From assembly GCA_035474955.1 (NCBI GenBank), contig DATIMV010000030.1, positions 4,207 through 68,206 of the forward strand: a stretch of DNA of 64,000 nt. The letters run 5' to 3'. The DNA is from Solirubrobacterales bacterium (GTDB taxonomy: Bacteria > Actinomycetota > Thermoleophilia > Solirubrobacterales > 70-9). Below the pieces are notes generated by a model. That model ran no database searches and was not told where the DNA came from. It was given only the letters and a program-made list of their open reading frames with translations. How positions within the stretch are numbered: the stretch's first letter is position 1; each line of letters begins with the position of its first letter. The translations under genes and the position numbers were made by a program. Of this stretch, positions 4,047 through 64,000 are shown one piece after another.

Positions 4047-4976
4047 ATGACGACCGTCGGACCACTTCCCTCAGATATCCAGCCCGTCGAGAACGAGACC
4101 CGGGACCGGATCATCACCGGCCTGGTCACCGTGATCCCCTTCGTCGCCGTCATCGTCGCCGGCTGGCAGGTGTGGGGCAGCGCCCTGAACTGGACCGACG
4201 TCTTCCTCTTCTGCGGCATGTACTTCTTCACCGGCCTCGGGATCACGGTCGGCTTCCACCGCCTCCTCACCCACCGCTCCTTCAAAACCAGCCCGTGGCT
4301 GCGCGGCCTGTTCGCGATCCTCGGCTCGGCGGCGATCGAGGGGCCGGTGATCTCCTGGGTCGCCGACCACCGCAAGCACCACACCTTCTCCGACGAACAC
4401 GGCGACCCCCACAGCCCCCACGTCGACCACGGCGGCGGCTTCAAGGGGGCGATGAAGGGACTCTTCCACGCCCACGTCGGCTGGATCTTCATCCACACCC
4501 AGCGCGGCAACAAGGAACGCTTCGCGCCGGACCTGATCAAGGACCCGGTGGTCAGCTGGGTCGACCGCACCTTCATCTACTGGGCGATCCTCGGCCTGCT
4601 TCTCCCGTTCTTCCTCGGCTGGATCATCGGCGGCACCCTCGTCGCCGGTCTCACCGGCCTCCTCTGGGGCGGCCTGGTGCGGGTCTTCGTCCTCCACCAC
4701 TTCACCTACAGCATCAACTCGCTCTGCCACACCTTCGGCCGCCGCGAATTCGAGACCACCGACCACTCGCGCAACCTGGCGCTGATCGCGATCCCGACCC
4801 TCGGCGAGGCCTACCACAACAGCCACCACGCCTTCCCCACCTCGGCCACCCACGGTCTGCGCTGGTGGCAGATCGACATCTCCTCCCTGGTCATCAACGG
4901 CCTCGAGAAGGTCGGCCTGGTTTGGGACGTGGTACGCGTTTCGCCTGAGCGAATGGCTTCGAAAACCGCCGCCTAA
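4047..4976 (+). CDS. membrane acyl-CoA/acyl-lipid (delta-9 type) fatty acid desaturase
   Basis: Three histidine boxes (HRLLTH, HRKHH, HNSHH) and TM segments. ATG 4047 (MTTVGPLP...) chosen because the upstream part of the track ORF overlaps the cfa start region. Confidence 0.85.
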   Translation: MTTVGPLPSDIQPVENETRDRIITGLVTVIPFVAVIVAGWQVWGSALNWTDVFLFCGMYFFTGLGITVGFHRLLTHRSFKTSPWLRGLFAILGSAAIEGPVISWVADHRKHHTFSDEHGDPHSPHVDHGGGFKGAMKGLFHAHVGWIFIHTQRGNKERFAPDLIKDPVVSWVDRTFIYWAILGLLLPFFLGWIIGGTLVAGLTGLLWGGLVRVFVLHHFTYSINSLCHTFGRREFETTDHSRNLALIAIPTLGEAYHNSHHAFPTSATHGLRWWQIDISSLVINGLEKVGLVWDVVRVSPERMASKTAA

Positions 4977-7354
4977 GGCGTTTCCGGGCTTTCGTACCAG
5001 TCGATCCAGGAATCACACGCCTGACCCAGCGGCACCGTGCGGTGCGGCTCGGCCGGCACAGCGACCAGCTCGCCTAGATAGGCCTTGCCGTCGTACCCGG
5101 TCAAGCTCTGCAGGGCGCTCGCCCCCTCGGCCTCGACCGTGAAGCGGACGGGGCCGCCCTTGCTCTCGTAGCGGCCAGCCGGCCAGTACTGGCCGTTGTT
5201 GCCGAGGCTGATCGTGTTCGGGCGCTGCCCGTCGAGCGCGGCCTTCAGCTCTTCGCTGAAGCCCGGCGCGGAGATGGTCAGGTCGAAGGGCGAGAAGTAC
5301 TGAAGCGAGAGGTTCCAGGCACCGGGGGGCAGCCGCAGCGTTTGCGAGACCTCGGAGCCGGTCTCGAGGATGCTGGTCTCGCGCCAGTCCCCTTTGTGGC
5401 CGATCACCGCGTCTGGAAAGAGGCCGGCGCGGCCGGGGTTGGCGAGGAGGATGCGGATCTCCGGCGCGCCGCAGCCGGCGAGGGCGCCCGCCTCGGTTCC
5501 CTCGAGCAGGACGTGGCGGTCCTCGGGCGTCAAGCCGGTCCGTTCCCAGAGCACGTAGGAGTCGGTGCTCGCGACCCGCTTGAAGTTGGGCGGGGCCTGG
5601 CTGTTCCAGGCGGCGCGGCTGGTGATCACGTAGCGGAAGCGGTCGAGCGTTCCCCGCGAGAAGGAGTCGAAGTCGATCGGGCTGTAGGCGTCGCCGGTGT
5701 CGAACGGCTTTTCCGGATTGGGGGAGACGGCGTCGTCGGGGAACTCGACCAGCGGCACGTGGGTGTCTGCCCCCATCAGCTCGTAGGCGGCGAAACGGTC
5801 CTGGCCGGCGTAGAGGACCGGCTGGCCGTGCAGCTTCGGCAGGAAGGATCGGAGCTCGGCCCCGTGCCCAGGTGGGCCTACAGGGGCATCCCGGAGCGCC
5901 AGGAAGCTCGAGTAGACGGCGCCGCCGATGAACGCGACGGCCAGGATGGTCCAGGCAAGTCGTAGGGGCGCCGGGGGGGGGGGTCCCCCCGACAACAGCG
6001 GGGAGGGTCCGGTGGACCCCCTCCCCCGGCGCCCGAATCGGGGGAATTCTTCGAGCAGGGGGCGGACGATCACCAGCATCGCTAGCGGGGCCATGATGAT
6101 CAGGGCCTTGGCCTGGGAGTAGTCGCCGCTGGTGGGGAGGGAAGCGAGGTAGAGGAGGGTGGCGGCGCCTAGCGCGATAGGGATTGCGGCTTCGCGGCGG
6201 CGCACCCACCAAGCGACGCCCGCAAGCAGGGCGAGGACCGAGATCGCGCCCGCGAGGACCGGCAGGCGGACGCTGCCTTCGGCGTCGAGCCGGTAGTTGG
6301 AGGTGGGCCAGATTCCCAACGTCTCCAAGGCTGAGACTGGGCCGTAGGTGTTGCTGGCGGCGACTTTGTTGAAGGCGCCGCCGAAGCCGAAGGGACCGAC
6401 CACAGTGACCAGGACCGCGAGGCCGGCCAGGACGACGAGCGCCAGCAGGGTCAGCGGCCGCAGCAGGAAGCGCAGCAGAGAGCGCGGGCGTAGAGCCGCG
6501 CGCACCGGGGGCAGAGTGAGGCTCCACAGGGCGAGGATCGCCACTGGCCAGGCAACTCCAGCGAAGCTGTAAGAGAAGAAGATGCCGCCGGTCAGTGCCA
6601 GCGGCAGGCGCGCGAAGCGAAGACGATCACGCCACCCGTCGGGCAGCCTCTCGAATCGCGTCAGCCAGATCGCGAAGGCGAGGACTAGGAGGGCGGCGGC
6701 GGTCTCCTTGAAGGCTGCCTGCGCGTAGTAGGAGGCGGCGAGATAGGGGATGGCGACCATCGCGGCGCCGAGCGTCCGCCGGCCCGGCGTCAGGCTCCGC
6801 AGCGCGCCCAGCGCGGTCAGGCCGGTCATCGCCCCGATCGCGATGATCTCGCCGATGAACGCTTGGCCGAGACCGATGCCAGGCACTGAGGCAGTCGCCA
6901 CCGCCAGCCCGTGCGGCCCCAGCGGGTAGCCCGGCTCCGCCTCGGGGCCAAAGCCGCTGCGCAGCCACTCCGCCCAGGCGAGGTGCAGGCCGAGGTCGTT
7001 GTTGAAGCCGACGCCGAGCAGTCCCCAGCGGCCGCTGATCGCAAACGGGATCGAGAGCACGAGGACCACGACCAGCGCTACCGGCAGTCCCTCCCGCCAG
7101 GCTCCGGACGCCCGGTAGTCGGCCCACCAAACGATCGCGGCGGCGGCCAGGGCGAGGAGAGCCACCCCCAGCGTCGCCGAGGTCCCGTGTCCCGGTGCCC
7201 GGGCCAGCAGCCCGGTCACCGTCAGCACGGCGCCGAACCCGACCGCCGGCTCCAGCCACGACCACTCCCGCCTGCCGGCAAGCGAGAGGACGGCCCGGCC
7301 GACCAGCAGCGAGACGGCGCAGATCAGCGCCGCCGAGGCGTAGGTCGCGATCAT
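4973..7354 (-). CDS. large polytopic membrane protein with C-terminal extracytoplasmic domain (GT-C-like, function unknown)
   Basis: 793 aa with ATG start. About 12 or more hydrophobic segments in the first 470 aa, then a soluble about 320-aa domain. No motif that I can assign. Contains a C11 homopolymer on the coding strand at 5973-5983. Confidence 0.6.
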   Translation of the reverse strand: MIATYASAALICAVSLLVGRAVLSLAGRREWSWLEPAVGFGAVLTVTGLLARAPGHGTSATLGVALLALAAAAIVWWADYRASGAWREGLPVALVVVLVLSIPFAISGRWGLLGVGFNNDLGLHLAWAEWLRSGFGPEAEPGYPLGPHGLAVATASVPGIGLGQAFIGEIIAIGAMTGLTALGALRSLTPGRRTLGAAMVAIPYLAASYYAQAAFKETAAALLVLAFAIWLTRFERLPDGWRDRLRFARLPLALTGGIFFSYSFAGVAWPVAILALWSLTLPPVRAALRPRSLLRFLLRPLTLLALVVLAGLAVLVTVVGPFGFGGAFNKVAASNTYGPVSALETLGIWPTSNYRLDAEGSVRLPVLAGAISVLALLAGVAWWVRRREAAIPIALGAATLLYLASLPTSGDYSQAKALIIMAPLAMLVIVRPLLEEFPRFGRRGRGSTGPSPLLSGGPPPPAPLRLAWTILAVAFIGGAVYSSFLALRDAPVGPPGHGAELRSFLPKLHGQPVLYAGQDRFAAYELMGADTHVPLVEFPDDAVSPNPEKPFDTGDAYSPIDFDSFSRGTLDRFRYVITSRAAWNSQAPPNFKRVASTDSYVLWERTGLTPEDRHVLLEGTEAGALAGCGAPEIRILLANPGRAGLFPDAVIGHKGDWRETSILETGSEVSQTLRLPPGAWNLSLQYFSPFDLTISAPGFSEELKAALDGQRPNTISLGNNGQYWPAGRYESKGGPVRFTVEAEGASALQSLTGYDGKAYLGELVAVPAEPHRTVPLGQACDSWIDWYESPETP

Positions 7355-7385
7355 CAGGCGCTGGAACTTAAGGCAGCGGGCGCTT

Positions 7386-8102
7386 TCAGTACTTCTCGGC
7401 GGCCCGTTCGAGCGTCTCGCGCAGGTTCTCCCCGCGCAGCGGATGCTCGTGACCGGCCCCCACGACCCGCGGTTCCAGGGCCGCCAGCCGCCGCAGCGAC
7501 TCCTTCGCCTTTGCGTGGTTCCAGGCCCAGGCCGGGTGGGGAACGCTCGCCTCGCCCTCCGGCAGCGGCTTCAGGCGCGCCGAGTCGACCAGGTAGACGA
7601 CGTCTGAGACCAGGGCGACCCGGTCGCTCTCGCGCCAGAGCCCGATCAGCCCTGGAGCGTGGCCGGGGAAGTGCAGGACCTGGAAGCCGGCCACCTCGTC
7701 GCCTTCGATCACCGTGTCGGCGATCCGCACCGCCCCGCCGTCCCAGCGCCGCAGCAGGAAGGGGTAGATCCAGCGCACCCAGGCCACCGGCAGCTGCGAG
7801 AGGTCCATGTAGGAGTCGATCGCGGCGTCGTTTTCGGCGTCGGCCTTTTCGTCGGGATGGCAGAGGACGGGAACGTCGAGGTAGGGAGCGGTGCCGCGAT
7901 GGTCGGCGTGAGCGTGGCCGAGGATGATCCGCTTCAGCCCGCCCAGCTCCTCGGCCGCCGCCCGCGCCTGCTTGCGCATCGCCTTGGTTCCGGCGTCGAA
8001 CTGGATGACGCCGTCGCCGTCCTCGATGAAGTAGATGTTCATCGCCCCGCGGAAATCGCCGCGCAGCAGCCAAACTCCCTCTGCCACCTTCTCCAGCGCC
8101 AT
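7386..8102 (-). CDS. MBL-fold metallo-hydrolase
   Basis: HxHxDH motif (LGHAHADHRG) and a downstream GH motif (HFPGHAPG). ATG start at 8102. Confidence 0.8.
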   Translation of the reverse strand: MALEKVAEGVWLLRGDFRGAMNIYFIEDGDGVIQFDAGTKAMRKQARAAAEELGGLKRIILGHAHADHRGTAPYLDVPVLCHPDEKADAENDAAIDSYMDLSQLPVAWVRWIYPFLLRRWDGGAVRIADTVIEGDEVAGFQVLHFPGHAPGLIGLWRESDRVALVSDVVYLVDSARLKPLPEGEASVPHPAWAWNHAKAKESLRRLAALEPRVVGAGHEHPLRGENLRETLERAAEKY

Positions 8103-10713: not shown

Positions 10714-10803
10714 GGAGAGGTGTCCGAGCGGCTTAAGGAGCGCGATTGGAAATCGCGTGGGCGGGGTTAACCCGCCTCGTGGGTTCGAATCCCACCCTCT
10801 CCG
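10714..10803 (+). tRNA. tRNA-Ser (anticodon GGA)
   Basis: Cloverleaf folded by hand: acceptor GGAGAGG/CCTCTCC, anticodon stem CGCGA/TCGCG with loop TTGGAAA, long variable arm and T-arm GTGGG-TTCGAAT-CCCAC. CCA is not encoded. Confidence 0.9.
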
Positions 10804-10997
10804 CTACACGGAAGTAGCGGGATCCTCGTCAAGGAACGGATCGGTTCCCTGAGCTCAACTCTATACTTCGCTGAGTAATGGAGCTCTGATTGCGCTTCGT
10901 TGCACCCCTGGGAGGGCCGGCATTTCTTGGCCGATGATGTCGGTCCTCTCTCTTCCCCACAGCCGGTTCGAGGAACCGCTGTGTAGGAAAAGAGTAG

Positions 10998-11086
10998 CGG
11001 AGGGGGTGGGATTCGAACCCACGAGCCCCCTTACGAAGGCCAACGGTTTTCGAGACCGCCCCGTTCAACCACTCCGGCACCCCTCC
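10998..11086 (-). tRNA. tRNA-Ser (anticodon CGA)
   Basis: The reverse complement reads GGAGGGGTGCCGGAGTGG...CTCGAAA...GTGGGTTCGAATCCCACCCCCTCCG. It has a long variable arm and anticodon loop CTCGAAA. Convergent with tRNA-Ser(GGA). Confidence 0.9.
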
Positions 11087-11535: not shown

Positions 11536-11602
11536 CTCTCGGCACTAAGTTACGAAACTCAAAAAAGGGCTGTACTTGCTGTCTAATTTTAGTACTCTGG
11601 AT

Positions 11603-12367
11603 CTAGTTGACCGCCAAAGCCTCATTTGCCGCCTCATGACCCTCGTAAGGAAGCACTACGAAGTACATCAGCGAGGGCAAAAGAGCCTCGAGCTGACCGT
11701 ACTCCTGCTTGCAGAGGCGAGAATAGAGCAGGGATTCGACTCCGCCGACGATCCCCGAGGCCGTTACGGCGGTCTGCGTCCGGTCCCCGGGGAGGAGCTC
11801 TTCCGCTTCGGCTTGAAGGCAACGAGCGAAGTCATCCATCAGCTCGACACGGCGCCTAACCGCCGTAGCGCTGGCGGCCCGGGCCTCGACCACCATGGTC
11901 CGAGCGGTATCGGGCTCGTGACTGGCAAAGCGCAGCAGCGCTTCCAGCGCGCAGCGAACTCGATCGCGCCAGACGTCACCTCCCTTGCCGGCGGCGAGCT
12001 GGACCTTCTTGCGCAGCCGCTCGGCACTGGAGTCGAAGGCGGCGAGGAAGCAATCTTCTTTGTTGGAGAAATGTTCGTAGAAGGTCGGGCGGGAGACACC
12101 GGCTCGATCGATCACGTCCTGAACGTTGGTTTCGAGGTAGCCGAGCTCGGCGGCCGCGTTGAGCATCGCGACGATCAGCCGCTCCCGCTGGATCGCGCGG
12201 ATCAGTTCCGAGGGAAGCTTCCGAACCCCGGAAGGGAATCTGCCGCTGCTGTTGGCGAGCAACTCGAGGGCGGCTTGAACCTGATCGGGAGGCCAGTCGT
12301 CACCGATCGCCGCAAGGAGGGCCTCTTGGCTCAGCTTAATTCGGTCGAGGGGTGCCAAAGAACTCAC
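11603..12367 (-). CDS. TetR/AcrR-family transcriptional regulator (paralog 1 of 3)
   Basis: HTH VQDVIDRAGVSRPTFYEHFSNKEDCFLAAF. GTG start at 12367 is uncertain, because it leaves a long N-terminal extension before the QRERLI segment. Confidence 0.8.
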   Translation of the reverse strand: MSSLAPLDRIKLSQEALLAAIGDDWPPDQVQAALELLANSSGRFPSGVRKLPSELIRAIQRERLIVAMLNAAAELGYLETNVQDVIDRAGVSRPTFYEHFSNKEDCFLAAFDSSAERLRKKVQLAAGKGGDVWRDRVRCALEALLRFASHEPDTARTMVVEARAASATAVRRRVELMDDFARCLQAEAEELLPGDRTQTAVTASGIVGGVESLLYSRLCKQEYGQLEALLPSLMYFVVLPYEGHEAANEALAVN

Positions 12368-12480
12368 AGGTTTCCATTAAAAACATTGCAAGTTTTCTCA
12401 CGGTACCAGAATATTGGCGGGGCGCATGGGCCCTCGGCGGCAGCCTCCTCGCACATGGCTCGCAGCGGAGGCGGCGTTCG

Positions 12481-13101
12481 ATGACTATCCGCCCGGAGCT
12501 ACCCCGCGAGTTCATCGCCGACCACAAGCGGCGCCGCATGATGGGCGCGATTGCGGAGCTCACCGCCGCCCAAGGATACGAGGCGACGAAGATCGCCGAT
12601 ATCGTTCGCCGCGCCGCTGTCGCCCGCAAGACTTTGTATGACAACTTCGACGGCAAGGAGGATCTGTTCCTCTCCGCGGTCGACTCGGTCTTGACCGAAA
12701 TGCGGGTCGTCGTCGAGGAGGCCTGCGCGGCTCAGGACGGATCCCAGGGAGACGGAATCGTCGCTGGTCTGGAGGCTTTGCTCGAGTTCATCGCCGCAAA
12801 CCCCGAGGCCTCGCGAATGTGCATGGTAGAGGCGATCTCGGCCACTCCGAGCTCGGCCCGGCTGTACGACGCGGCGATGCACGACTTCGTCGAGCTCCTG
12901 CGCAGAAGCGCTCCCACGGACGCCGATCTGCCGGAGACGATCGAGGAATCGCTGGTGGGCGGCGTCGCCTGGATTCTGCAGTTGCAGATCAGGCGAGGGG
13001 ACACCGAGCGGGCCGTGGAACTGCTCCCAGAATTGTCCCAGTTCGTCCTATCGCCCTACTTGGGTGTGGGAAAGGTGGTTGATACCGGGAGGCGAAAGTG
13101 A
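12481..13101 (+). CDS. TetR/AcrR-family transcriptional regulator (paralog 2 of 3)
   Basis: ATG 12481 (MTIRPELPREFIADHKRRRMM...). HTH IADIVRRAAVARKTLYDNFDGKEDLFLSAV. Divergent from paralog 1. Confidence 0.8.
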   Translation: MTIRPELPREFIADHKRRRMMGAIAELTAAQGYEATKIADIVRRAAVARKTLYDNFDGKEDLFLSAVDSVLTEMRVVVEEACAAQDGSQGDGIVAGLEALLEFIAANPEASRMCMVEAISATPSSARLYDAAMHDFVELLRRSAPTDADLPETIEESLVGGVAWILQLQIRRGDTERAVELLPELSQFVLSPYLGVGKVVDTGRRK

Positions 13102-13129
13102 CAGTACGGTGCCAGACTTCGATGCTGAA

Positions 13130-13771
13130 ATGGACCGATTACCGCGGGGACGCCACGGCCTTTCACCAGAGTTTGTCGCGCGAAATCAGCGTGAGCGGCT
13201 GATCGCTGGCCTCACCCAGACTCTCTACGAGGTTGGGTATCAAGAAACCACTGTGTCACTTATCGGGAAACGCGCGGCCGTTTCCAAGAGTGACTTCTAT
13301 AAACACTTCCAGAGCAAGGACGAGTGTTTTATCGCCGCCTACGACGCGGCGATCGAGCGAATTCGCGAGCAGGTGGTCATGGCCTGCGAGGAACGGGCGG
13401 GCGAAGGTTGGGCGTGGCGCGTGCGCGGCGCGATCGACGCGCTGCTGAGGCTGCTGACCGCAGAACCGGCGCTGGCGAGCATCGCTCTGGTCGAGGGGCT
13501 CCGGGCTGGACGCGGTGTCTATGACCGCTACCAAGCCGCGGTGGAGTCCTTCGTCAGATACCTGCGCCAGGACGCGCCCGCCCCGACGGGGGGAGAAGTG
13601 CCCGAGGCGACCGGTGAAGCGGTGGTCGGCGGCATCGCATCTTTACTCGGGCGCCGGGTCCTGGCCGGCGAAGCCGACCGGTTGAGCGAGCTCTTTCCGG
13701 AGATCCTCGAGTTCGCTCTCGCTGCCTATATGGGCGAGGAAGAGGTTCGGCGAATAGTCTCCTCGGAATGA
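13130..13771 (+). CDS. TetR/AcrR-family transcriptional regulator (paralog 3 of 3)
   Basis: MDRLPRGRHGLSPEFVARNQRERLI... with HTH VSLIGKRAAVSKSDFYKHFQSKDECFIAAY. An alternative GTG start lies at 13109. The stop overlaps the next gene start (ATGA at 13768-13771). Confidence 0.8.
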   Translation: MDRLPRGRHGLSPEFVARNQRERLIAGLTQTLYEVGYQETTVSLIGKRAAVSKSDFYKHFQSKDECFIAAYDAAIERIREQVVMACEERAGEGWAWRVRGAIDALLRLLTAEPALASIALVEGLRAGRGVYDRYQAAVESFVRYLRQDAPAPTGGEVPEATGEAVVGGIASLLGRRVLAGEADRLSELFPEILEFALAAYMGEEEVRRIVSSE

Positions 13772-22197: not shown

Positions 22198-22686
22198 ATG
22201 TCCGCCGAGGCCAACCGGGCGACGATCGAGCGCTTCTACGAGGCGTTCGGCCGTTGCGACGGCAGCGCGATGACCGCCTGCTACACCCCGGACGCCCACT
22301 TCCGCGACCCGGCGTTCGGTGACCTCCATGGTGAGGAGGTCGGGGCGATGTGGCGGATGCTGACCGGCCGCGCCACCGATCTCGAGATCGAGCTGCGCGA
22401 GCACGAGGCCGGCGAGGAGACCGGCAGTGCCCACTGGATCGCCCGCTACACCTTCTCCACCGGGCGGCCCGTGGTCAACGACGTCCAAGCGAGCTTCCGC
22501 TTCGCTCCCGATGGCCGGATCGCCGACCACGTCGACGAGTTCGACTTCCGCAACTGGGCGAAGCAGGCACTCGGCCCGAGCGGTCACCTGGTGGCCCTGC
22601 TGCCGCCGCTGCGCTCGAAGGCCAGAGAGAAAGCGCTGGCGCAGCTCGCCTCCTTTCGCATGGAAGAGACCGGCTCCAGCGTCTAG
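22198..22686 (+). CDS. NTF2-like (SnoaL/ketosteroid isomerase-like) protein
   Basis: 162 aa. ANRATIERFYEAFGRCDGSAMTACYTPDAHFRDPAFG is typical of SnoaL-like NTF2 proteins. Confidence 0.7.
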   Translation: MSAEANRATIERFYEAFGRCDGSAMTACYTPDAHFRDPAFGDLHGEEVGAMWRMLTGRATDLEIELREHEAGEETGSAHWIARYTFSTGRPVVNDVQASFRFAPDGRIADHVDEFDFRNWAKQALGPSGHLVALLPPLRSKAREKALAQLASFRMEETGSSV

Positions 22687-22760
22687 CGCTTTCCCGTTCT
22701 CGCAGCGGGGCGATGCGGGCCTCGTCGCCGCTGGCTCCTTGCCCGGCATACTTCTCTCGC

Positions 22761-24410
22761 ATGGAGTTCGAGAACGCCCTTCCTGAACTCTCCGAGAATC
22801 CTCAGGATGCCCGCGGTGATTGGGGAGCGGCGGAAGCCGATGAGGTCGTGTATCGCCTCGGTTTGTCCTGCGCCTTGGTTCCGGGTCTACCCGAGGAGCT
22901 TTGGATTGGCGACGTGCAGGTCAGGTTCGTACGAGGTCCGGTGAGGGCACAAAGGACCGAAATCCGACAGCGATTTGGGTTACCTGTCGTCTTCGACAAG
23001 TCAATGAAGCGTGTTGAGATTGGAGATGACGAGGTCATTGCTCTCCTCTCCCTCTCAACCACGCCAGTTCCAGACGATCTTGAGGCAGGATTCGCCGGCT
23101 GGAGGGCCCATGCTTTAGCGGCTGCTGGAATGCTTGCTTCGGTTCTCGATGAGCGGGTGGCTGGAGCCGAGTTGTTCGAGGACGCCATTTTCCTACGCCG
23201 GGGAACCTTTGTCGGAGCCGCCGACATACGCGAAAAGGTCAGGACGTACTTGCCCTTTGAAGTGAATCCCGCTGATAAACGCGCCTTGGAGCGGCTGAAT
23301 GATCTTTCCGCCTCCGAGTCATCCGCAGTCGCTCGTGCTGCCCGCCTCTATCGCCGAGCCGCCCTCGAGGGCCCCACGGCAGATGCCTACGCGATGCTGT
23401 GGGTTGCCGCAGAGTGCTTCAGCGAGCATCGAAGCCCCTCCCGCAAGGACATTGAAGCTGCGCTCTCCGCGGCAGGGCTAAACCCCGAGGGATTGCCTAT
23501 CAGTGTCGGCCGCCTGATCGAATTGAGGGGCAAGATCCAGCATCATGGGGTGGAGTCAGACGACAGGCTGACTACGGCCTTTTATGAGATGGAGGCCGTA
23601 GTACGTACCTTGATCCGCCAAGAGGCGGGTCTCGAGGGAGGGTGGTGGGCGGCATCCGACAACCCGGCGGGCTTCGCGGCTCCGTTCGATGCTGCGGTGG
23701 CTCAGTTGCACGGGCGCGGAATAAGCGAATGGCACGTTGACCAATTACCTTCCCCCGAGACTCCGAGGCCGCTACGGATACCCAGAACCATCCCGAATCC
23801 GCAGAACGATCCAAGAATTGATCTTGCCGAGGGTTTTGGGGACACAGCCCACCTCATCGCAGGAGTCGTGCTTGACGCAATCGAATGGATTGATCCTGGC
23901 TTTTCTTTACAAATTCGCTTAGGACGTCCTCCAGAGGCTCCTCCAAGCGCACCATTTGGCGCGAATGCCGATTCTCTCTGGATCTCGAAGGAGGGACTTG
24001 ATGGCGTCGGCGATCCAGAAAAACCACATCTGCTGGTAAACCTCGTTTGGGATTTGGTGGGTCTCGTAGGTTTCGCTGTCGCTCAGCGTGTCGGGGCAGC
24101 GAGCCGCGGAAATGGGGTGCCGTTCGTTCAGGCCTTCGGCTCCTGGCTCCAATATGAGCGGCTTGTCAAGCACGGCGATTTCGAGGCGGAGGCCTTGTCG
24201 ATTCCAAGTGCCAACGACCCGATTTCCCTGGGAAAGCTCTGCGGCTGGGCCGCGGCCGGCGACCTGCGAGCAGAGGCATCAGTTCAAAGCCTGGAAGGCG
24301 AGACGTATGAGCTGGGGATTTCGATCCTTGAGACGCTTAGGGAAATTCCCCTCGCAGCCCCACTTCATTTACTTGATTCCTCAGAGGAACCGGCCGGGAC
24401 GGAGCGCTAG
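22761..24410 (+). CDS. orphan 549-aa protein with a central HEPN-like Rx4H motif (function unknown)
   Basis: ATG 22761, with an alternative in-frame ATG at 22713. GC is visibly lower than the flanks. Contains LIELRGKIQHHG (R256..H261, nt 23526-23543). No other motif recognised. The upstream part of track ORF 22350..24410 overlaps the NTF2 gene out of frame. Confidence 0.6.
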   Translation: MEFENALPELSENPQDARGDWGAAEADEVVYRLGLSCALVPGLPEELWIGDVQVRFVRGPVRAQRTEIRQRFGLPVVFDKSMKRVEIGDDEVIALLSLSTTPVPDDLEAGFAGWRAHALAAAGMLASVLDERVAGAELFEDAIFLRRGTFVGAADIREKVRTYLPFEVNPADKRALERLNDLSASESSAVARAARLYRRAALEGPTADAYAMLWVAAECFSEHRSPSRKDIEAALSAAGLNPEGLPISVGRLIELRGKIQHHGVESDDRLTTAFYEMEAVVRTLIRQEAGLEGGWWAASDNPAGFAAPFDAAVAQLHGRGISEWHVDQLPSPETPRPLRIPRTIPNPQNDPRIDLAEGFGDTAHLIAGVVLDAIEWIDPGFSLQIRLGRPPEAPPSAPFGANADSLWISKEGLDGVGDPEKPHLLVNLVWDLVGLVGFAVAQRVGAASRGNGVPFVQAFGSWLQYERLVKHGDFEAEALSIPSANDPISLGKLCGWAAAGDLRAEASVQSLEGETYELGISILETLREIPLAAPLHLLDSSEEPAGTER

Positions 24411-24458
24411 AGCAGACGAAGATTGCTTCCTTCAATCCATTCCCATGGATCAGCTAAG

Positions 24459-24848
24459 TCACTTCGCTAGCTGGGCTTCTGCCCATTCGCCGACTTCATT
24501 GAACAGCGCGACCGTCGCCTCACGGTCCAGCGGCTCGGCATCTAGGAGATCCGCATAGCGCAGCGGGACCGCATAGATCGACAGGTCATCGAGCTGGTCA
24601 GCGCCCGGGGGTGGATCGATCCCGGCGCTGTCGAGAATTTCAAGCAGCCGTCCAAGGTCGTGAATACGAGCCTCTTCCAGGCCGTGGAACGCCATCACCG
24701 CCTTGAGCCACTTCTCGACCGCCTGTTGGGCGTGGAAGCCGATGGCCTCGTCATCGATCTCGGGGTCGGGCGCCAACTTGCGCGCAACCCTGGCATCGCC
24801 CGTTGCCTTGCGTGCAAGAACCTTCGCGAGGTCCCCAGCATCAGGCAT
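24459..24848 (-). CDS. HEPN-domain protein (toxin-type partner of the MNT nucleotidyltransferase)
   Basis: FHAQQAVEKWLKAVMAFHGLEEARIHDLGRLLEIL is typical of MNT-associated HEPN. ATG 24848 overlaps the MNT stop by 8 nt (ATGCCTGA). Confidence 0.8.
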   Translation of the reverse strand: MPDAGDLAKVLARKATGDARVARKLAPDPEIDDEAIGFHAQQAVEKWLKAVMAFHGLEEARIHDLGRLLEILDSAGIDPPPGADQLDDLSIYAVPLRYADLLDAEPLDREATVALFNEVGEWAEAQLAK

Positions 24849-25158
24849 CGACAAGAACCCGGCCCTCACTCAGCGCCTCGTTGAGCATCGTGCCGTCGAA
24901 GTGACCCCATTCTTCGACGTCTTTAGCGCTCACGACGATTACATCAAGGGCCACTTCCAGCCCTCGCAACTCTCGCCTCAGGCGTGCCGTCTCGGCTCGA
25001 CGCTTTGACACGTCATCCGGCTCGATTACCAGGAGATCAAGATCGGAATCTGGGCGGGCCTCTCCACGGGCGCGAGAACCAAAGAGAATCACTTTGGCTC
25101 CGGGCGCGGCGCTGGCGAGTCGCCGGCCAGCCTCTGCGATTAGAGCCTCGTCGGTCAT
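24841..25158 (-). CDS. minimal nucleotidyltransferase (MNT) domain protein
   Basis: GSRARGEARPDSDLDLLV motif (GSxxxG...DxD). ATG 25158 preferred, with GTG 25179 as an alternative. Confidence 0.8.
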   Translation of the reverse strand: MTDEALIAEAGRRLASAAPGAKVILFGSRARGEARPDSDLDLLVIEPDDVSKRRAETARLRRELRGLEVALDVIVVSAKDVEEWGHFDGTMLNEALSEGRVLVDA

Positions 25159-25249
25159 GCGCCATAGGGTAGCCGTCACTTTTGACAGCCACGGAAACCG
25201 AGCCCGAATCCTTTAGAGGTTGACCGGTTGACCCAGTTTGGGCCGCATG

Positions 25250-25263
25250 CGAACATATGTTCG
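25250..25263. promoter_or_regulatory. LexA-type SOS box (CGAAC-N4-GTTCG)
   Basis: The perfect 14-bp palindrome CGAACATATGTTCG overlaps the start region of the radical-SAM gene. It matches the Gram-positive/mycobacterial SOS-box core GAAC-N4-GTTC. Confidence 0.6.
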
Positions 25264-25264
25264 T

Positions 25265-26317
25265 ATGAGGTGGGATGAGCAACGAGTCGAGAACGACCTG
25301 CGACTGCCGGGGGTGGGGGACGGCACCGTCGTCCGCACCTTCGACGCCCCGGAGGCGATGGGGATCAACTTCCACGAGGTCCGCGCCCGCTCGGCGCTGA
25401 ACCACGTTCCCGGCAGCCGCTACGGCTTCAGCTGGACGATCAACCCCTTCAGAGGATGCACCCATGCCTGTAAATACTGTTTTGCTCGAAGAACTCATAA
25501 CTATTTAGATTTTGGTCCTGGTAAAGACTTCGAGCGGGAAATCGTCGTCAAGGTCAACGTGCCGGAGCTGCTGCGGGCGGAGCTGCGGCGGCCGAGCTGG
25601 AAGCGGGAGCTGGTGGCGCTGGGGACGAACACCGACCCCTATCAGTGGGTCGAGAGCCGCTACCGGATGATGCCCGAGATCCTCGCGGCGCTGGAGGCGG
25701 CGGAGACGCCGGTCTCGGTGCTGACCAAGTCGCCCCTGGTGCTGCGCGACGTCGAGATCTACGAGCGGATGGCGAAGGTGCTGCCGATCTCGGTCAACCT
25801 CTCGATTCCGACCCTGGACGAGGAGGCCTGGCGGGCGACCGAGCCGCACACCCCAAGCCCAGCCGCCCGCCTCGAAGCCGTCGCCGAGCTCCGCTCCCGC
25901 GGCATCGACTCCGGAGTCCTGATCGCGCCGCTGATGCCGGGGATCAACGACGACCCCGACCAGGTCCGCCCGCTCGTAGAACAAGCCAAAGCCGCCGGCG
26001 CCACCTTCCTGGGCAGCGTCGCCCTCCACCTCCGCGGCGAGGTAAAGGACGTCTTCTTCGCCTGGCTAGAGGCCAAACGCCCCGACCTCCTCCCCCGCTA
26101 CGAAGCTCTCTACCGCGACCGCGCCTACATGCGGCCTGAGCAGCGCCGTCACGCAACGAGAGCTGTCAAAGGCTGGGGCAGAGGAAGAGCGTCAAGACAA
26201 AGGGATTCACGGGCGGGTGGCGACGATCGGGAGGACTCTCCCGATAGGGAGAGCCCCCGATCGGAGACAGGACCCGCCCGCCAGAGCTCCCCCGTCCACC
26301 AGGGTTCCCTCTTCTAG
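25265..26317 (+). CDS. Rv2578c-family radical SAM protein (SplB/DNA-photolyase-like, COG1533 type)
   Basis: FSWTINPFRGCTHACKYCFARRTHNYLDF carries the CxxxCxxC motif. Start ambiguous (TTG 25238, ATG 25247 or ATG 25265). The C-terminal 35 aa are encoded by a repeat element and low-complexity sequence. Confidence 0.85.
   Translation: MRWDEQRVENDLRLPGVGDGTVVRTFDAPEAMGINFHEVRARSALNHVPGSRYGFSWTINPFRGCTHACKYCFARRTHNYLDFGPGKDFEREIVVKVNVPELLRAELRRPSWKRELVALGTNTDPYQWVESRYRMMPEILAALEAAETPVSVLTKSPLVLRDVEIYERMAKVLPISVNLSIPTLDEEAWRATEPHTPSPAARLEAVAELRSRGIDSGVLIAPLMPGINDDPDQVRPLVEQAKAAGATFLGSVALHLRGEVKDVFFAWLEAKRPDLLPRYEALYRDRAYMRPEQRRHATRAVKGWGRGRASRQRDSRAGGDDREDSPDRESPRSETGPARQSSPVHQGSLF
26212..26287. 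repeat. 76-nt palindromic repeat element, copy 1 (in-frame in the radical-SAM gene tail)
   Basis: 74/76 nt identical to 54481-54556. Has an internal hairpin CTCTCCC-GATA-GGGAGAG flanked by GATCGGG...CCCGATC. Confidence 0.85.
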
Positions 26318-59816: not shown

Positions 59817-60370
59817 CAGTTGCTCCTTTCCTCGAGAGCGGAGTCGAGGATTCGGGCCTCCATCCGCTCGCACCAGTCGGCAAACCACTCGCTGAACTCG
59901 AGCCCGCCTTCCAGCACGATCAGGGGGAAGGGGTCCTCGACTTCACCGCTCAGCTTCAAGTCTTTGATTGCCTGCAACTGCTGGTGGGCGGCGAGCCGCC
60001 GCGCCCGCATCTCGCGCAGGATTACCAGCGCCTCCTCGCGCGGCAGCGCATCGGCGAAGAACAGCTTCAGCAGCCCTTCGTCGCGCATCTCGAAGACGTC
60101 GGGCCGCTGCCGCAGCCAGCTCCGCAGCTCCTCCTCGCCGTCGGCGGTGATCTCGTACACCGTCCGCTTGCGCCCGCCGGTGGGGGAGTCGGAGCCGACG
60201 ATCAACCCCGCCTCCGCGAGCCGTTTCAGCTCGGGGTAGATCTGCCCGTAGCTCGCCGCCCAGAAGAACCGGGTCGAGTTGTCGACCAGGGCTTTGATCT
60301 CGTAGCCGGACTTGGGCCCTTTGCGGACGAACCCGAGGATCACGTAGGCGGTGGCGCTCAGCGTCTCCAT
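59816..60370 (-). CDS. PadR-family transcriptional regulator
   Basis: YVILGFVRKGPKSGYEIKALVDNSTRFFWAASYGQIYPELKRLAEAGLI. The stop shares one base with the MMPL start. Confidence 0.85.
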   Translation of the reverse strand: METLSATAYVILGFVRKGPKSGYEIKALVDNSTRFFWAASYGQIYPELKRLAEAGLIVGSDSPTGGRKRTVYEITADGEEELRSWLRQRPDVFEMRDEGLLKLFFADALPREEALVILREMRARRLAAHQQLQAIKDLKLSGEVEDPFPLIVLEGGLEFSEWFADWCERMEARILDSALEERSN

Positions 60371-60381
60371 ATCTCTGGCTT

Positions 60382-60400
60382 ATATATCTAACAGATATAT
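60382..60400. promoter_or_regulatory. AT-rich palindrome upstream of padR (candidate PadR operator / promoter)
   Basis: ATATATCT-AAC-AGATATAT has perfect 8-bp arms. It lies 12-30 bp upstream of the padR ATG. Confidence 0.45.
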
Positions 60401-60465
60401 CGAGAAGTGTGATTACGATCACGCTCTCCGGCCGCCGCCGGAGTCGATCGATCTGTCCAGAGATG

Positions 60466-60495
60466 CGAGAGGGCCGGGAAAGATCCCGGCCCTCT
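60466..60495 (-). terminator. 13-bp perfect-stem hairpin downstream of the low-GC secreted-protein gene
   Basis: GAGAGGGCCGGGA-aaga-TCCCGGCCCTCTC lies 45 bp after the stop at 60540. There is no U-tract (I-shaped terminator type). Confidence 0.55.
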
Positions 60496-60539
60496 CTCGG
60501 CAGAGGCCTGCCGCGATGCGGCGCCTCGTGTGTATGGCT

Positions 60540-61143
60540 TTAGTCGATCGAGATGCTCGTGCCTCCGCTTACCGGTTTAGCGGTGACTGCCGATTCCTGG
60601 GTGTATTCAGCGCCTTCTTTTTCGCCGGTCCCGCTGAAGGGGCACAGGAACCCATCTTTTGTGACGTTGTATTTGATTTTTTTGGCGGTGGCGAAGATGT
60701 CCAGCCAGGGGCTGTTGTTGGTGAATTTGACCCCTGTCAGGTTGTTCTGCGGCGGAACGTCTACCACGCAGTTACCGGCTGTAATTTCTATTACTTTGGT
60801 CGGGGGGCACCCGATATCGATTTTCTCGTTGCTGTACATGATGTACCAGCATCCGTTCACATGCACCGTTGCGCTGACGAACCCGAAGGCTTTGCATTCG
60901 GTGTAGGTCGGGAATATTTTGATCGAGGTCGAGGCTTCCGACAAAGTGCCTTCGAAATGACCAGCGCATTCGACGGTGCCGCCTTCCGTCGTGAAGATGT
61001 CGTTGCCGAGAGGGCTGGTCGCTGTGACCGTGGTCGGGTACGAGCTCGCTGTGAATTGCGCTTGGGCCGCGGAGGCGACGACTGCGCTCATCGCGAGGAC
61101 GGCGACCAGAGTCGGCCCCAAGATCTTGAGTTTGCGAATCATT
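60540..61143 (-). CDS. orphan secreted Cys-containing protein encoded in a low-GC patch
   Basis: ATG 61143 preceded by AGGGAG. Signal peptide MIRKLKILGPTLVAVLAMSAVVASAAQA. About 50% GC by eye. No recognisable domain. The rest of the 387-aa track ORF is a non-coding extension. Confidence 0.6.
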
Positions 61144-61415
61144 TGAATCTCCCTTTCTTGTTGCGTGATGCCGCTCCCCGAGTTTGTTGGGGAGCTGACC
61201 CGCAGGTCAAGAAATATTGGGCGTTGCTCTACTTGCGGTGATCCGGCTTCCAGAATTCTCCTGCAAGCACAGTGCGGCACAGATCTGTGATGCACGGAGC
61301 CGCGCACGCAGCAAAGGGCCTCAGGTGGGATGCCCGTCCGCGGAAGCAGGCGGGTGGAGTGCGATCCCGTAAGGTCAGCGGTCCATGTTCGAAGGCGAGG
61401 AGAGAGGAGCTTGGG

Positions 61416-61652
61416 ATGTCGCTTGACCAGAGCAAGGTCGGCCGGGTCGTGGCCGAACAGATGGAGGCGATCGAGAACGACTACGGCGACGACTGCGAAA
61501 TCGGCGACGTCTGCACGATCGTCGAGGTGGTCGGTCCGCACGGCTCGCACGTGCGGGTGCGCAGCAGCGACATGCGTCCCCACAGCGGCCTCGGCCTGAT
61601 CCGGATGGCCGAACAGGCGATGCTCGGCAACCTCGGAGGCGCGGCCGAGTAG
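61416..61652 (+). CDS. small acidic hypothetical protein (78 aa)
   Basis: Strong RBS (GAGGAGAGAGGAG) upstream of ATG 61416. GC3-rich codons. A short hairpin follows the stop. Confidence 0.55.
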
Positions 61653-61705
61653 GAGCCCTCCCGAGGGAGGGGCCCCAACCGGTTCCCGACTATCCTCAGA
61701 CATCG

Positions 61706-62995
61706 ATGACTGGGGATGGGTCCGACATCGTCGTGATGAAGTTCGGCGGCACCTCCGTGGCGGGTGCCGAGCAGATCAAGCGCGCCGCGGGGCGGATCGT
61801 CGCCGCCCGCGAGGCCGGCAGCCGCGTCGTCGCCGTGCTCTCCGCCCGCGGCAAGACGACCGACGAACTGGTCGAGCAGGCGCACGAGATCTCCGCGCGC
61901 CCGGTCGCCCGCGAGATGGACATGCTGCTCTCGACTGGCGAGCGGATCTCCTGTGCGCTGTGCGCGATGGCGATCCACGACATGGGCCACGAGGCGATCT
62001 CGCTGACCGGCTCGCAGGCGGGGATCGTCACCGACTCCTCCCACACCAAGGCGCGGATCATCGACGTCCGCGCCGATCGCATCTCCGAGGCGCTGCAGCA
62101 GGACCGGATCGTCCTCGTCGCCGGCTTCCAGGGTGTCTCCACCGACAGCCGCGACGTCACCACCCTCGGCCGCGGCGGCTCCGACACCACCGCCGTCGCC
62201 CTCGCCGCGGCACTCCGCGCCAGCGTCTGCGAGATCTACACCGACGTCTCCGGCGTCTACAGCGCCGATCCGCGGATCGTCCCCAGCGCCCACAAGCTCG
62301 ACCGCGTCTCCTTCGAGGAGATGCTGGAGATGTCGGCTTCCGGCGCGGGGGTGCTGCAGCTGCGCTCGGTCGAGTACGCGCGTAACCACGGCGTCCGCAT
62401 CCACTGCCGCAGCAGCTTCGAGGACGGTCCCGGTACCCTCGTCGTCTCAGAGGAAGAGACCATGGAGAACCCCTTCGTAACCGCAGTCACCCATTCCAGC
62501 TCGGAGGCCCGGGTGACGCTCAACGGCCTCCGCGACGAGCCGGGCGTCGCCGGGCGCGTCTTCGGCGCCCTCGCCGATGCCAACGTCAACGTCGACGTGA
62601 TCATCCAGAACGAGCCGGTTGGCGACGACCAGCTCGCCGACCTCTCATTCACCGTCGACCGTTCCGATCTGACCACCGCCAAGGACACGATCACTGCCCT
62701 CGGCGACGTCTCGCTGAAAATCCTCACCGATGAGCAGATCGGCAAGGTCTCGATCGTCGGCGCCGGCATGCGCTCCCACCCGGGTGTCGCCGCCAAGGTC
62801 TTCCAGGTGCTCGGCGAGGCGAAGATCAACATCGAGATGATCTCCACCTCGCCGATCAAGATCTCGTGCGTCATCGCCGCCGACCGCGTCGCCGACGCCG
62901 TCAACCTCCTCCACAAGGCGTTCGATCTCGGCGAGGACGCGATCCAGCCCGAGGACCCGACCGGCCCGGATCACCGGCCGACGGTTGCCAACTGA
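61706..62995 (+). CDS. ask: aspartate kinase
   Basis: [25 protein letters not shown] and two C-terminal ACT domains. Followed by asd, as in other Actinomycetota. Confidence 0.9.
62462..62995 (+). CDS. ask: possible in-frame internal start for the aspartokinase beta (ACT-domain) subunit
   Basis: In-frame ATG at codon 253 ([20 protein letters not shown]), preceded by GAGGAAGAG. It lies at the position where Corynebacterium/Mycobacterium lysC-beta starts. Confidence 0.4.
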
Positions 62996-63016
62996 GCGGC
63001 CGTCATACTCGACCGA

Positions 63017-64000
63017 TGGCCGCTGACGGATACAGAGTCGGGGTGCTGGGCGCGACGGGGCTCGTCGGCTCGACGATCCTCGAGCTGCTCGCCGCCCGGG
63101 ACTTCCCGGCGCGCGAGGTCGTCCCCTTCGCCTCCGAGCGCTCGGCCGGCAAGGAGATCGAGTGGGAGGGCAAGGTTCTCACGGTCCAGTCGCTGAACGA
63201 GGACTCGATCCAGGGCCTCGACCTCGTCCTCTCCTCCGCCGGCGGTGCGATCAGCGCCGAGTGGACGCCGAAGCTGGTCGAGGCCGGCGCGACCGTGGTT
63301 GACAACACCAGCTACTGGCGCATGCACGACGATGTGCCGCTGGTCGTCTCCGAGGTCAACCCCGACGCTCTATCTGGTCACAACGGGATCGTCGCCAACC
63401 CCAACTGCTCGACGATGCAGATGGTCGTCGCCCTGAAACCGCTCTACGACGCGGCCGGGATCGAGCGGCTGGTGATCTCCACCTACCAGGCGGTCTCCGG
63501 TACCGGTAAGGCGGCGATCGACGCGCTGAATGCCGAGGCCCGGGCGGTGGTCGGCGGCTACGAGTTGCCCGAGCCGCAGATCTACCCGCACCAGATCGCC
63601 TTCAACGTTCTCGCCCACGCCGGCAGCTTCCCCGACGGGGACGACCACACCGACGAGGAGCGCAAGCTGATCAACGAGACCCGCAAGATCCTCGGCGACC
63701 CCGAGATCAAGGTCAGCGCGACCTGCGTGCGGGTGCCGGTGGTGACCGGCCACTCCGAGGCGGTCAACGTCGAAACCCGCGAGCCGCTCGAGCCCGCGCA
63801 GGCGCGCGAGCTGCTGGAAGCCGCCCCCGGGGTGACGGTCGTCGACGACCCCGCTGCCGCCCGGTACCCGATGGCGGTCGACGCCGCCGGCAAGGACGAG
63901 GTCTACGTTGGCCGGATCCGCCGCGACGCCGGCAACGAGCGGGCGCTCGACATGTGGGTCGTCTCCGACAACCTGCGCAAGGGCGCCGCGACCAACACGG
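63017..64000 (+). CDS. asd: aspartate-semialdehyde dehydrogenase, N-terminal 328 codons (runs off the window end)
   Basis: My own translation gives MAADGYRVGVLGATGLVGSTILELL...IVANPNCSTMQMVVALKPL...STYQAVSGTG. No stop before base 64000, so it is absent from the ORF track. Confidence 0.9.

Follow-up and report, generated by a model that had tools for sequence, protein, structure and literature searches.

A 64-kb stretch of DNA from a Solirubrobacterales bacterium (64,000 nucleotides of contig DATIMV010000030.1, hereafter the window) contains a short islet of lowered GC content, the largest gene of which encodes a 549-residue protein with a central domain that is very probably related to the HEPN domain of ApeA. 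This gene (NCBI locus tag VLI94_05970) occupies positions 22761–24410 on the forward strand. Convergent with it, on the reverse strand, lie genes for a minimal nucleotidyltransferase (MNT; 24841–25179), a predicted antitoxin identified with Pfam model PF01909, and for a small HEPN protein of the PF05168 type (24459–24848, with an alternative GTG start at 24869), a predicted toxin likewise identified with Pfam. These open reading frames (ORFs), together with the Pfam matches, agree with the three-gene content that an earlier, sequence-only reading of the window had given for the islet. The start of the large gene at 22761, taken from the ORF listing, is consistent with the alignment of its homologues and with the insertion boundary described below. 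A longer, 686-residue ORF running from a GTG at 22350 was discarded, since it overlaps the neighboring SnoaL gene and begins outside the insert.

Across 22761–25179, the GC content is 60.1%, compared with 67.8% for the whole window and about 70% for the flanks, which places the islet in the lowest 0.4% of same-size windows. In a 300-bp sliding window, GC falls from ~0.70 to 0.55–0.64 across ~22650–25650, with minima of 55–57%. GC at third codon positions (GC3) is 0.61 in the 549-residue gene, 0.63 in the MNT gene and 0.73 in the small HEPN gene, compared with 0.88–0.95 in the neighboring genes and a median of 0.88 for the window. The drop in base composition and the codon usage distinct from that of the flanks, both proposed in the sequence-only reading, are borne out by these figures; its estimate of a GC content in the mid-50s % applies only to some of the 300-bp windows (55–57%), the mean being ~60%. 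An extension of the islet past 25179 to ~25650 was rejected: that part of the dip is the native 5′ part of the radical-SAM gene on the right, as radical-SAM orthologues show equally lowered GC at their 5′ ends. The islet holds neither an Rfam family nor a tandem-repeat array, which argues against an AbiF-like RNA antitoxin.

A three-gene insertion in a native locus

The insertion was tested at 80 Solirubrobacterales loci encoding an orthologous radical-SAM protein, which were searched with all neighboring window proteins. The gene order orfX-SnoaL-radical-SAM-ligase-ABC is kept in about 45 of the 80, and in loci without an insert the SnoaL stop codon lies ~45 bp ahead of the radical-SAM start. 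The sequence-only reading had proposed comparing orthologous loci between the NTF2 and radical-SAM genes; in this comparison, relatives of the 549-residue protein, the MNT and the small HEPN protein are missing from all 80. In alignments with the closest empty sites (loci L008 and L009), homology stops right after the SnoaL stop (22686) and restarts at ~25246, just ahead of a CGAACATATGTTCG box, delimiting an insert of ~2.56 kb (22687–25245, edges approximate). At the ends of the window cassette, we found neither direct nor inverted terminal repeats, nor any remnant of a tRNA. The cassette is an insertion into a native locus.

Pfam and NCBIfam identify the left flanking gene as SnoaL_2/NTF2-like and the right one as Radical_SAM of the Rv2578c family, and the CGAACATATGTTCG box is present, in keeping with the NTF2 gene and the SOS-box-bearing gene that had been named as flanks from the sequence. 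The box (25250–25263) is a LexA-type element that belongs to the radical-SAM gene, marking the right edge of the native DNA outside the cassette. It is a perfect palindrome, which we take to be the Gram-positive LexA/Cheo-box form, occurs as a single site in the window and is kept at the empty sites (6958–6971 in L008, 7986–7999 in L009).

The 549-residue family and its central domain

The orphan status attributed to the 549-residue protein in the sequence-only reading does not hold. We found 85 homologues with 34–100% identity, all of them unannotated, and an exhaustive search of 50%-identity representatives yielded at least 174 clusters; homologues with a named source stem from Solirubrobacterales, Conexibacter or "Actinobacteria" metagenome-assembled genomes. 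The protein itself has no Pfam, NCBIfam or PADLOC match above threshold and no match among PDB sequences, a close-family profile (alignment A1) detects nothing in Pfam, NCBIfam, PADLOC or the PDB sequences, and no published description of the family was found in the literature searched. A profile search of a large protein collection with the domain alignment, which relied on a word-based prefilter, returned five family fragments only. Short relatives of 300–370 residues cover only residues ~25–310 and lack the C-terminal domain; the family core therefore consists of the N-terminal domain and the motif-bearing helical domain, and the C-terminal ~250 residues are, as judged from the aligned sequences, an addition in a subset of relatives. 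The closest fragmentary relative (85% identity; 4207–5855 in locus L092) is split into ORFs of 370 and 169 residues, which probably reflects a frameshifted pseudogene or an assembly error.

The central domain comprises residues ~185–292 (23313–23636, forward strand), as delimited by profile matches and AlphaFold helices. It bears the predicted catalytic motif R256-x4-H261 (23526–23543, forward strand) and, in its second helix, the acidic residue E218 (codon at 23412–23414, forward strand), both assigned on the basis of conservation and of an alignment with Ec2ApeA. Among 49 diverse family members, some just 25% identical, K80, D130, R132, R256 and W295 are found in all 49, H261 in 48, and position 218 is Glu or Asp throughout. 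A full-length AlphaFold model (predicted local distance difference test score [pLDDT] 89.6, predicted template modeling score 0.84) and a domain-only model (pLDDT 85.5) agree with each other and show helices at residues 189–203, 207–218, 249–262 and 270–289, with an inserted helix at 228–237. The models put the R256-H261 motif in the final turn of core helix 3 (249–262) and E218 at the end of core helix 2 (207–218). In HEPN domains generally, helix 3 ends with the motif, helix 2 contributes an acidic residue and a variable insert lies between these two helices (Anantharaman et al. 2013, PMC3710099); the predicted topology agrees with this layout in helix order, in the place of the motif, in the helix-2 acid and in the insert.

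The link to ApeA, missed by the single sequence and by the close-family profile, emerged from a domain-restricted profile of 37 diverse members, which, when run against the complete set of PDB sequences, matched four ApeA homologues (Ec2ApeA, E 2.7e-6; Ec3ApeA, 2.8e-4; Ec4ApeA, 0.018; Ec1ApeA, 0.056), and no family other than ApeA was found at E<1e-3. The Ec2ApeA match comprises two collinear stretches, residues 335–391 (helices H1–H2, with "LWIAIEsL" in common) and 484–535 (H3–H4). The family's "glRaeivH" is aligned to "RTRNLIVH" of Ec2ApeA and E218 to the Glu of "LWIAIEsL"; R256 and H261 fall on R502 and H507, an assignment we could make because the deposited R502A mutants have an Ala in that column. 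The ApeA fragments score 43.1 bits, compared with a maximum of 15.3 bits in 5000 composition-preserving shuffles and −0.6 bits for the reversed sequence. Sel1/TPR-like, CTPR and OGT proteins were matched in the same search at E 0.005–0.04. These weak matches should not be read as homology; they arise because the first HEPN helix pair at residues ~190–210 ("AARWYLRAAQxGPTADG", alignment A5) resembles the Sel1/TPR repeat consensus.

Sub-threshold Pfam matches to HEPN_RiboL-PSP or HEPN_Apea are seen in 3 of the 49 diverse members; the two that could be located lie on the Rx4H segment and the next helix and align with the C-terminal part of these models. No Pfam match was obtained with consensus sequences of the domain. 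About 10 of the top 50 weak Foldseek matches of the domain model are HEPN chains, none of them significant (all E >1), comprising Csm6 (6TUG), Csm6′ (8PE3, 8PCW), AF0298 (2HSB), 1WTY and HepT (7AE2, 7AE8); the best TM-scores, 0.44–0.49 for Csm6/Csm6′ and AF0298, likewise come with non-significant E values. Based on the profile matches, we regard homology of the central domain with the HEPN domain of ApeA as very probable. Position, conservation and the ApeA alignment all agree with the earlier proposal that R256-H261 fits a HEPN motif, and the AlphaFold helices, the Ec2ApeA match and the shuffle control support the HEPN fold around residues 190–290. The further proposal of an undescribed HEPN architecture stands for the overall arrangement; the HEPN domain itself belongs to a known, ApeA-like lineage.

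The N-terminal domain (residues ~25–160; 22833–23240, forward strand) is beta-rich and common to short (~330 residues) and long relatives. AlphaFold models it with strands between residues 28 and 100, a helix at 107–129 and a hairpin at 137–154; from the model and the conservation, we propose a sensor or regulatory role. The C-terminal domain (residues ~296–549; 23646–24407, forward strand), delimited from the secondary structure of the model, is found in long-form relatives only, the short ones stopping near residue 310, and is modeled as an alpha/beta portion with a helical bundle after it. The N-terminal domain has no match among the solved structures or profiles searched, and the C-terminal domain has none in any library searched. 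In a search of the PDB with a full-length family profile, the top match was ApeA, confined to the HEPN region; hence there is no relationship to ApeA in the N- and C-terminal domains. A likeness to YbeY in a Foldseek search (E 0.14) was treated as noise.

Genomic contexts and mobility

We compared 93 proteins encoded within 3.5 kb of the family gene at 16 independent loci with PADLOC and Pfam. No partner gene is conserved across the 16 loci, the contexts differ entirely from genome to genome, and in most loci the GC3 of the family gene is below that of its surroundings. Conserved housekeeping contexts, which the sequence-only reading had named as an observation that would speak against a defense islet, were not found; the contexts vary and are rich in defense and toxin-antitoxin (TA) genes. 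A complete Gabija pair lies immediately upstream of the family gene at L113 and L115 (GajA, E 6e-126; GajB, 5e-67), PDC-S21 lies immediately downstream at L110 (1.5e-107), a gene for a QatA/KAP-NTPase-like protein lies downstream at L111, and at L093 a type IIG restriction-methylase (DrmMI-like) adjoins a PLD-SNF2 helicase. Further matches among the neighbors, not assigned to individual loci, are PDC-S01, two PbeA and two phage integrases. Short relatives adjoin an integrase fragment and a transposase.

At three loci (L002, L100 and L101), the family gene forms a conserved 2.54-kb unit with an 85-residue ORF and a 98-residue ORF. The unit is bounded by a 44–83-nt direct repeat that corresponds to the 3′ end of a tRNA-Gly(GCC) gene (7217–7291 and 9791–9834 in L101; 5217–5291 and 7792–7853 in L002; 2203–2285 and 4744–4826 in L100). 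Duplicated tRNA-Gly ends of this kind are a signature of site-specific integration into a tRNA gene. No integrase is encoded inside the tRNA-Gly-flanked unit, which has therefore been mobilized in trans or represents a decayed island. The 85-/98-residue ORF pair was considered as a RelE/ParE-type TA system; this assignment finds no support in Pfam or the PDB, and the pair is TA-like in organization only. At L002, an RHH-PIN pair is found on one side of the family gene and a small overlapping ORF pair on the other.

In the window, the companions of the family gene are the MNT and the small HEPN protein. The MNT matches Pfam NTP_transf_2 (PF01909, E 3.9e-13) and PADLOC PDC-S09 (E 2.4e-11), its ORF contains a GSRARGEARPDSDLDLLV motif, and its score with the NCBIfam MntA_antitoxin model is 37 bits, under the 60-bit cut-off. 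The small HEPN protein, of ~130 residues, matches PF05168 (E 1.5e-15), and its ATG at 24848 overlaps the MNT stop by 8 nt; with this start codon, the convergent nucleotidyltransferase/HEPN pair with an 8-nt overlap noted in the sequence-only reading is confirmed. That reading had also called the pair canonical, which is not the case, given that the small HEPN protein has no Rx4-6H motif and just RYADLLD. From its domain matches, the pair is best described as a PF01909/PF05168 pair of TA-like organization, not as a certified HepT/MntA system.

The same trio is present on a metagenome contig from another sample (L096), with 92.4% nucleotide identity over 2386 bp and protein identities of 94%, 93% and 90%. 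The right flank of L096 beyond the MNT start differs and the radical-SAM gene is missing, so that the three genes must have moved or been inherited as one block. At another locus (L099), the gene for a 66%-identical relative is followed after 2 kb by a PF05168-type HEPN gene, where the contig ends. All other family loci are without MNT and small HEPN genes; the pair is therefore a co-passenger of the family gene, not its general partner, and the idea that it forms part of the same system as the large protein, raised in the sequence-only reading, is not sustained beyond L096, which holds the closest, 95%-identical relative, and this one loose co-occurrence. Just outside the window-type cassette in L096, an 86-bp stretch (2487–2572) is 77% identical to a stretch at an unrelated locus (7558–7643 in L005), ~150 bp downstream of the family gene there; the likeness may reflect a common target or flanking element.

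The native genes next to the window cassette include the radical-SAM gene of the Rv2578c family, the ATG of which (25265) is directly preceded by the CGAACATATGTTCG box. The TTG start listed for this gene at 25238 is probably wrong, because the box lies directly ahead of the ATG and is conserved at orthologous sites. The next gene encodes an ATP-dependent DNA ligase on the opposite strand and overlaps the radical-SAM gene, an arrangement that points to a repair pair under SOS control. In about a dozen related genomes (loci L054, L058–L061, L065, L066, L075 and L078–L080), the radical-SAM orthologue is split by ~0.9 kb between residues ~71 and 72 (e.g. 6759–7085 and 8001–8723 in L054); the split is in line with the NCBIfam "intein-containing Rv2578c family" model, with which the window protein also gave a score. 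As read from translations alone, L013 harbors an insertion-sequence transposase and an XRE-like helix-turn-helix protein between SnoaL and the radical-SAM gene (5204–8001), and around SnoaL in L037 (5380–8001) lie genes for a Phd/VapC-like pair and a HicB-like protein. The intergenic spaces between orfX, SnoaL and the radical-SAM gene are a recurrent insertion hotspot, with TA pairs or an insertion sequence carried there by other genomes.

Two further regions of the window stand out in composition. Between 10714 and 13771, divergent tRNA-Ser genes (10714–10804, forward strand; 10997–11086, reverse strand) are followed by a run of low-GC3 ORFs (11576–12484, 12499–12882 and the TetR-like 13064–13771), the first two of which have no Pfam match; this run may be another acquired islet. 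Low GC (~58–60%) is also seen at 59943–61703 and 62971–63753, with ORFs of 159, 387, 118 and 127 residues that have GC3 values of 0.42–0.69 and no Pfam match.

Proposed function and relation to known HEPN systems

We propose, with moderate confidence, that the 549-residue protein is a self-contained, infection-activated and auto-inhibited HEPN ribonuclease of the ApeA type in another domain arrangement, probably representing a phage-defense variant. In this model, the HEPN domains would dimerize, building a composite active site from R256, H261 and E218. The beta-rich N-terminal domain, together with the C-terminal domain in long forms, would keep the nuclease inactive until it senses a cue derived from the phage; the N-terminal domain, with its invariant Lys, Asp and Arg residues, and likewise the optional C-terminal domain would sense or transmit the trigger. 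Once activated, the enzyme would cleave RNA of the cell, most likely tRNA anticodon loops as judged from ApeA, DARNA and PrrC, and thereby arrest growth of the infected cell. Metal-independent endoribonuclease activity that relies on the Arg and the His is a feature of the HEPN superfamily (PMC3710099) and is predicted by this model. The gene arrived on the 2.56-kb cassette with an independent MNT/HEPN TA pair, landing in the intergenic hotspot, and the pair would most likely stabilize the cassette or act as a separate module. [quoted passage not shown] More speculatively, and with distinctly less confidence, we envisage that the N-terminal domain and the ApeA-type HEPN domain form an unrecognized Thermoleophilia sensor-effector module that responds to a cue unlike those of ApeA or DARNA and is spread by integrase-less, TA-stabilized mini-cassettes, and that the MNT may cross-regulate the large HEPN protein in the window-type cassette.

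Several observations speak against a phage-defense ribonuclease, a function that is predicted here from sequences and models. A PADLOC scan of the 549-residue protein returned no family at E<=1. No family member reaches the threshold of any curated HEPN model, the best HEPN_Apea (PF18739) score among the 49 diverse members being 14.1 bits compared with a cut-off of 24.4 bits. Foldseek searches gave nothing significant, either with the domain model (best E 1.1) or with the full-length model against the PDB and BFVD (best E 0.14). After the motif Arg, all 49 members have a small residue at position 257 (25 Ala, 18 Gly, 6 Ser), never Asn, Asp or His, and an Ex3[KR] motif is missing from their alignment; in HEPN domains at large, the helix-2 acid often lies within Ex3[KR], and a polar Asn, Asp or His after the Arg is typical, not obligatory (PMC3710099). 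Searches of phage genomes, plasmids and IMG/VR contigs yielded no relatives, about one third of the family loci are without recognizable defense or mobile genes nearby, and one locus lies between genes for ribosomal protein S12/S7 and RNA polymerase subunits.

An active HEPN ribonuclease might instead benefit the cassette, functioning as a toxin that mediates addiction or is triggered by stress and that contains its own inhibitory domain, without a role in phage defense. The family repeatedly occurs with TA modules, within TA hotspots and on mini-islands lacking an integrase, which would be consistent with such a function, as would the lack of an obligatory partner, and fused toxin-regulator architectures are plausible for HEPN proteins. 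We nevertheless consider this explanation unlikely, given that several loci lie directly inside defense clusters (Gabija, type IIG restriction-modification, PDC-S21) and that ApeA, the closest characterized HEPN lineage, is an anti-phage system. Moreover, a single gene without a separable, less stable antitoxin does not fit classical addiction.

Slightly less likely still is that the three window genes form one system, in which the MNT would control both HEPN proteins, for instance by adenylylation as MntA does with HepT, and the 549-residue protein would act as an additional, large effector in a type VII-like TA or defense module. The recurrence of the trio in L096 next to a different right flank, the PF05168-type HEPN gene near the L099 relative and the low GC3 common to the three genes are in line with this idea. 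However, L096 is so similar to the window that co-inheritance is expected anyway, about 14 other independent family loci have no MNT or PF05168 HEPN gene within reach, and other relatives adjoin unrelated pairs (RHH-PIN, small overlapping ORFs). In addition, the 549-residue gene is convergent with the pair and not co-transcribed with it.

That the domain has a HEPN fold and is not a nuclease, acting as a nucleotide- or ligand-binding or scaffolding module with a role in, e.g., regulation or RNA binding, appears improbable. Non-catalytic HEPN families exist (PMC3710099), and the small residue after the motif Arg, the missing Ex3[KR] and the possibility that the invariant K80, D130 and R132 form the actual functional site would be compatible with such a role. 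Yet the near-absolute conservation of the Arg, the His and the helix-2 acid down to 25% identity is a catalytic HEPN signature, and R256 and H261 align with proven catalytic residues of ApeA. Finally, a chance Rx4H motif in an unrelated helical domain, encoded by an ordinary strain-specific accessory gene, would accord with the failure of all curated models to pass threshold, with Foldseek E values that are all >0.1 and with the compositional attraction evident from the Sel1/TPR-like matches, but it is already strongly disfavored by the collinear matches to four ApeA homologues in two segments including the catalytic motif, by the want of any other family at E<1e-3, by the far lower scores of shuffled and reversed controls and by independent weak Pfam HEPN matches on the same segment.

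The proposed ApeA-type ribonuclease can be set against the HEPN systems described so far. ApeA was reportedly introduced as a single-gene anti-phage system by Gao et al. in 2020. It is a single-protein, auto-inhibited HEPN tRNase that cleaves tRNA anticodon loops in abortive infection, is activated by 5′-phosphorylated deoxydinucleotides bound in a pocket that lies between the N-terminal domain and the HEPN domain, and loses defense upon an R502A exchange (preprint 10.64898/2026.01.26.701840); the ~590-residue protein forms a ring-shaped oligomer (structures 9HXB–9HXN). The two proteins have in common a homologous HEPN domain, a single-gene organization with 550–590 residues, non-catalytic domains packed around the HEPN domain and an occurrence in defense islands. 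In ApeA, a C-terminal HEPN domain, split by a ~90-residue insertion, follows helical N-terminal and Mid domains, whereas the 549-residue protein has a compact, central HEPN domain with a beta-rich domain before it and an optional 250-residue domain after it. The residue after the Arg is Asn in ApeA and Gly, Ala or Ser in the 549-residue family, which moreover is not recognized by the Pfam HEPN_Apea and PADLOC models. Judged from the curated models, domain order and accessory domains, the protein is not a member of the ApeA family as currently defined.

DARNA (PD-T7-3) is a tRNase that is switched on by single-stranded DNA displayed by the phage single-stranded DNA-binding protein and acts on tRNA anticodon loops in abortive infection (10.64898/2026.02.22.705581). 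Auto-inhibited like ApeA, it likewise combines, in one polypeptide, a HEPN nuclease bearing Rx4H with a large non-catalytic sensing domain, a role that is predicted for the 549-residue protein. Both HEPN domains are structurally nearest to Csm6 (6TUG), the match of the 549-residue protein being non-significant. Unlike the latter, DARNA consists of an N-terminal HEPN domain and an all-helical, Pds5-like C-terminal domain, and no sequence similarity between the two proteins was detected. The neighboring pair resembles the type VII system HepT/MntA in having an MNT gene followed by a gene for a ~130-residue HEPN protein, an overlapping stop and start and a GS...DxD nucleotidyltransferase. It differs in that its HEPN protein is of the PF05168 type without Rx4-6H, not of the DUF86/HepT type, and in that its MNT scores under the NCBIfam MntA cut-off; the 549-residue protein is four times the size of HepT and in most genomes lacks a dedicated MNT. 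The ApeA-NTD1 and MAE_18760-NTD1 architectures (Anantharaman et al. 2013, PMC3710099) also place a beta-rich N-terminal domain before a HEPN domain in mobile or defense contexts; they show no sequence or profile match to the 549-residue family, and the likeness is one of organization only.

As none of the Pfam, NCBIfam and PADLOC models tested detects the family, annotation based on these libraries misses it. Its source lineage, Solirubrobacterales/Conexibacter, is a poorly studied, mostly uncultured soil group in which almost no defense systems have been tested, and its small cassettes (2.5 kb, TA-paired and, in one lineage, bounded by tRNA-Gly repeats) provide a compact example of defense-gene movement without an integrase of their own. 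A new arrangement of accessory domains around a HEPN nuclease will be no great surprise to specialists, and the family is well suited to experimental study. ApeA and DARNA currently serve as models of the coupling between infection sensing and a toxic effector; with an ApeA-type catalytic domain retained and everything else replaced, the 549-residue family offers a natural comparison of different sensors that would gate one and the same nuclease.

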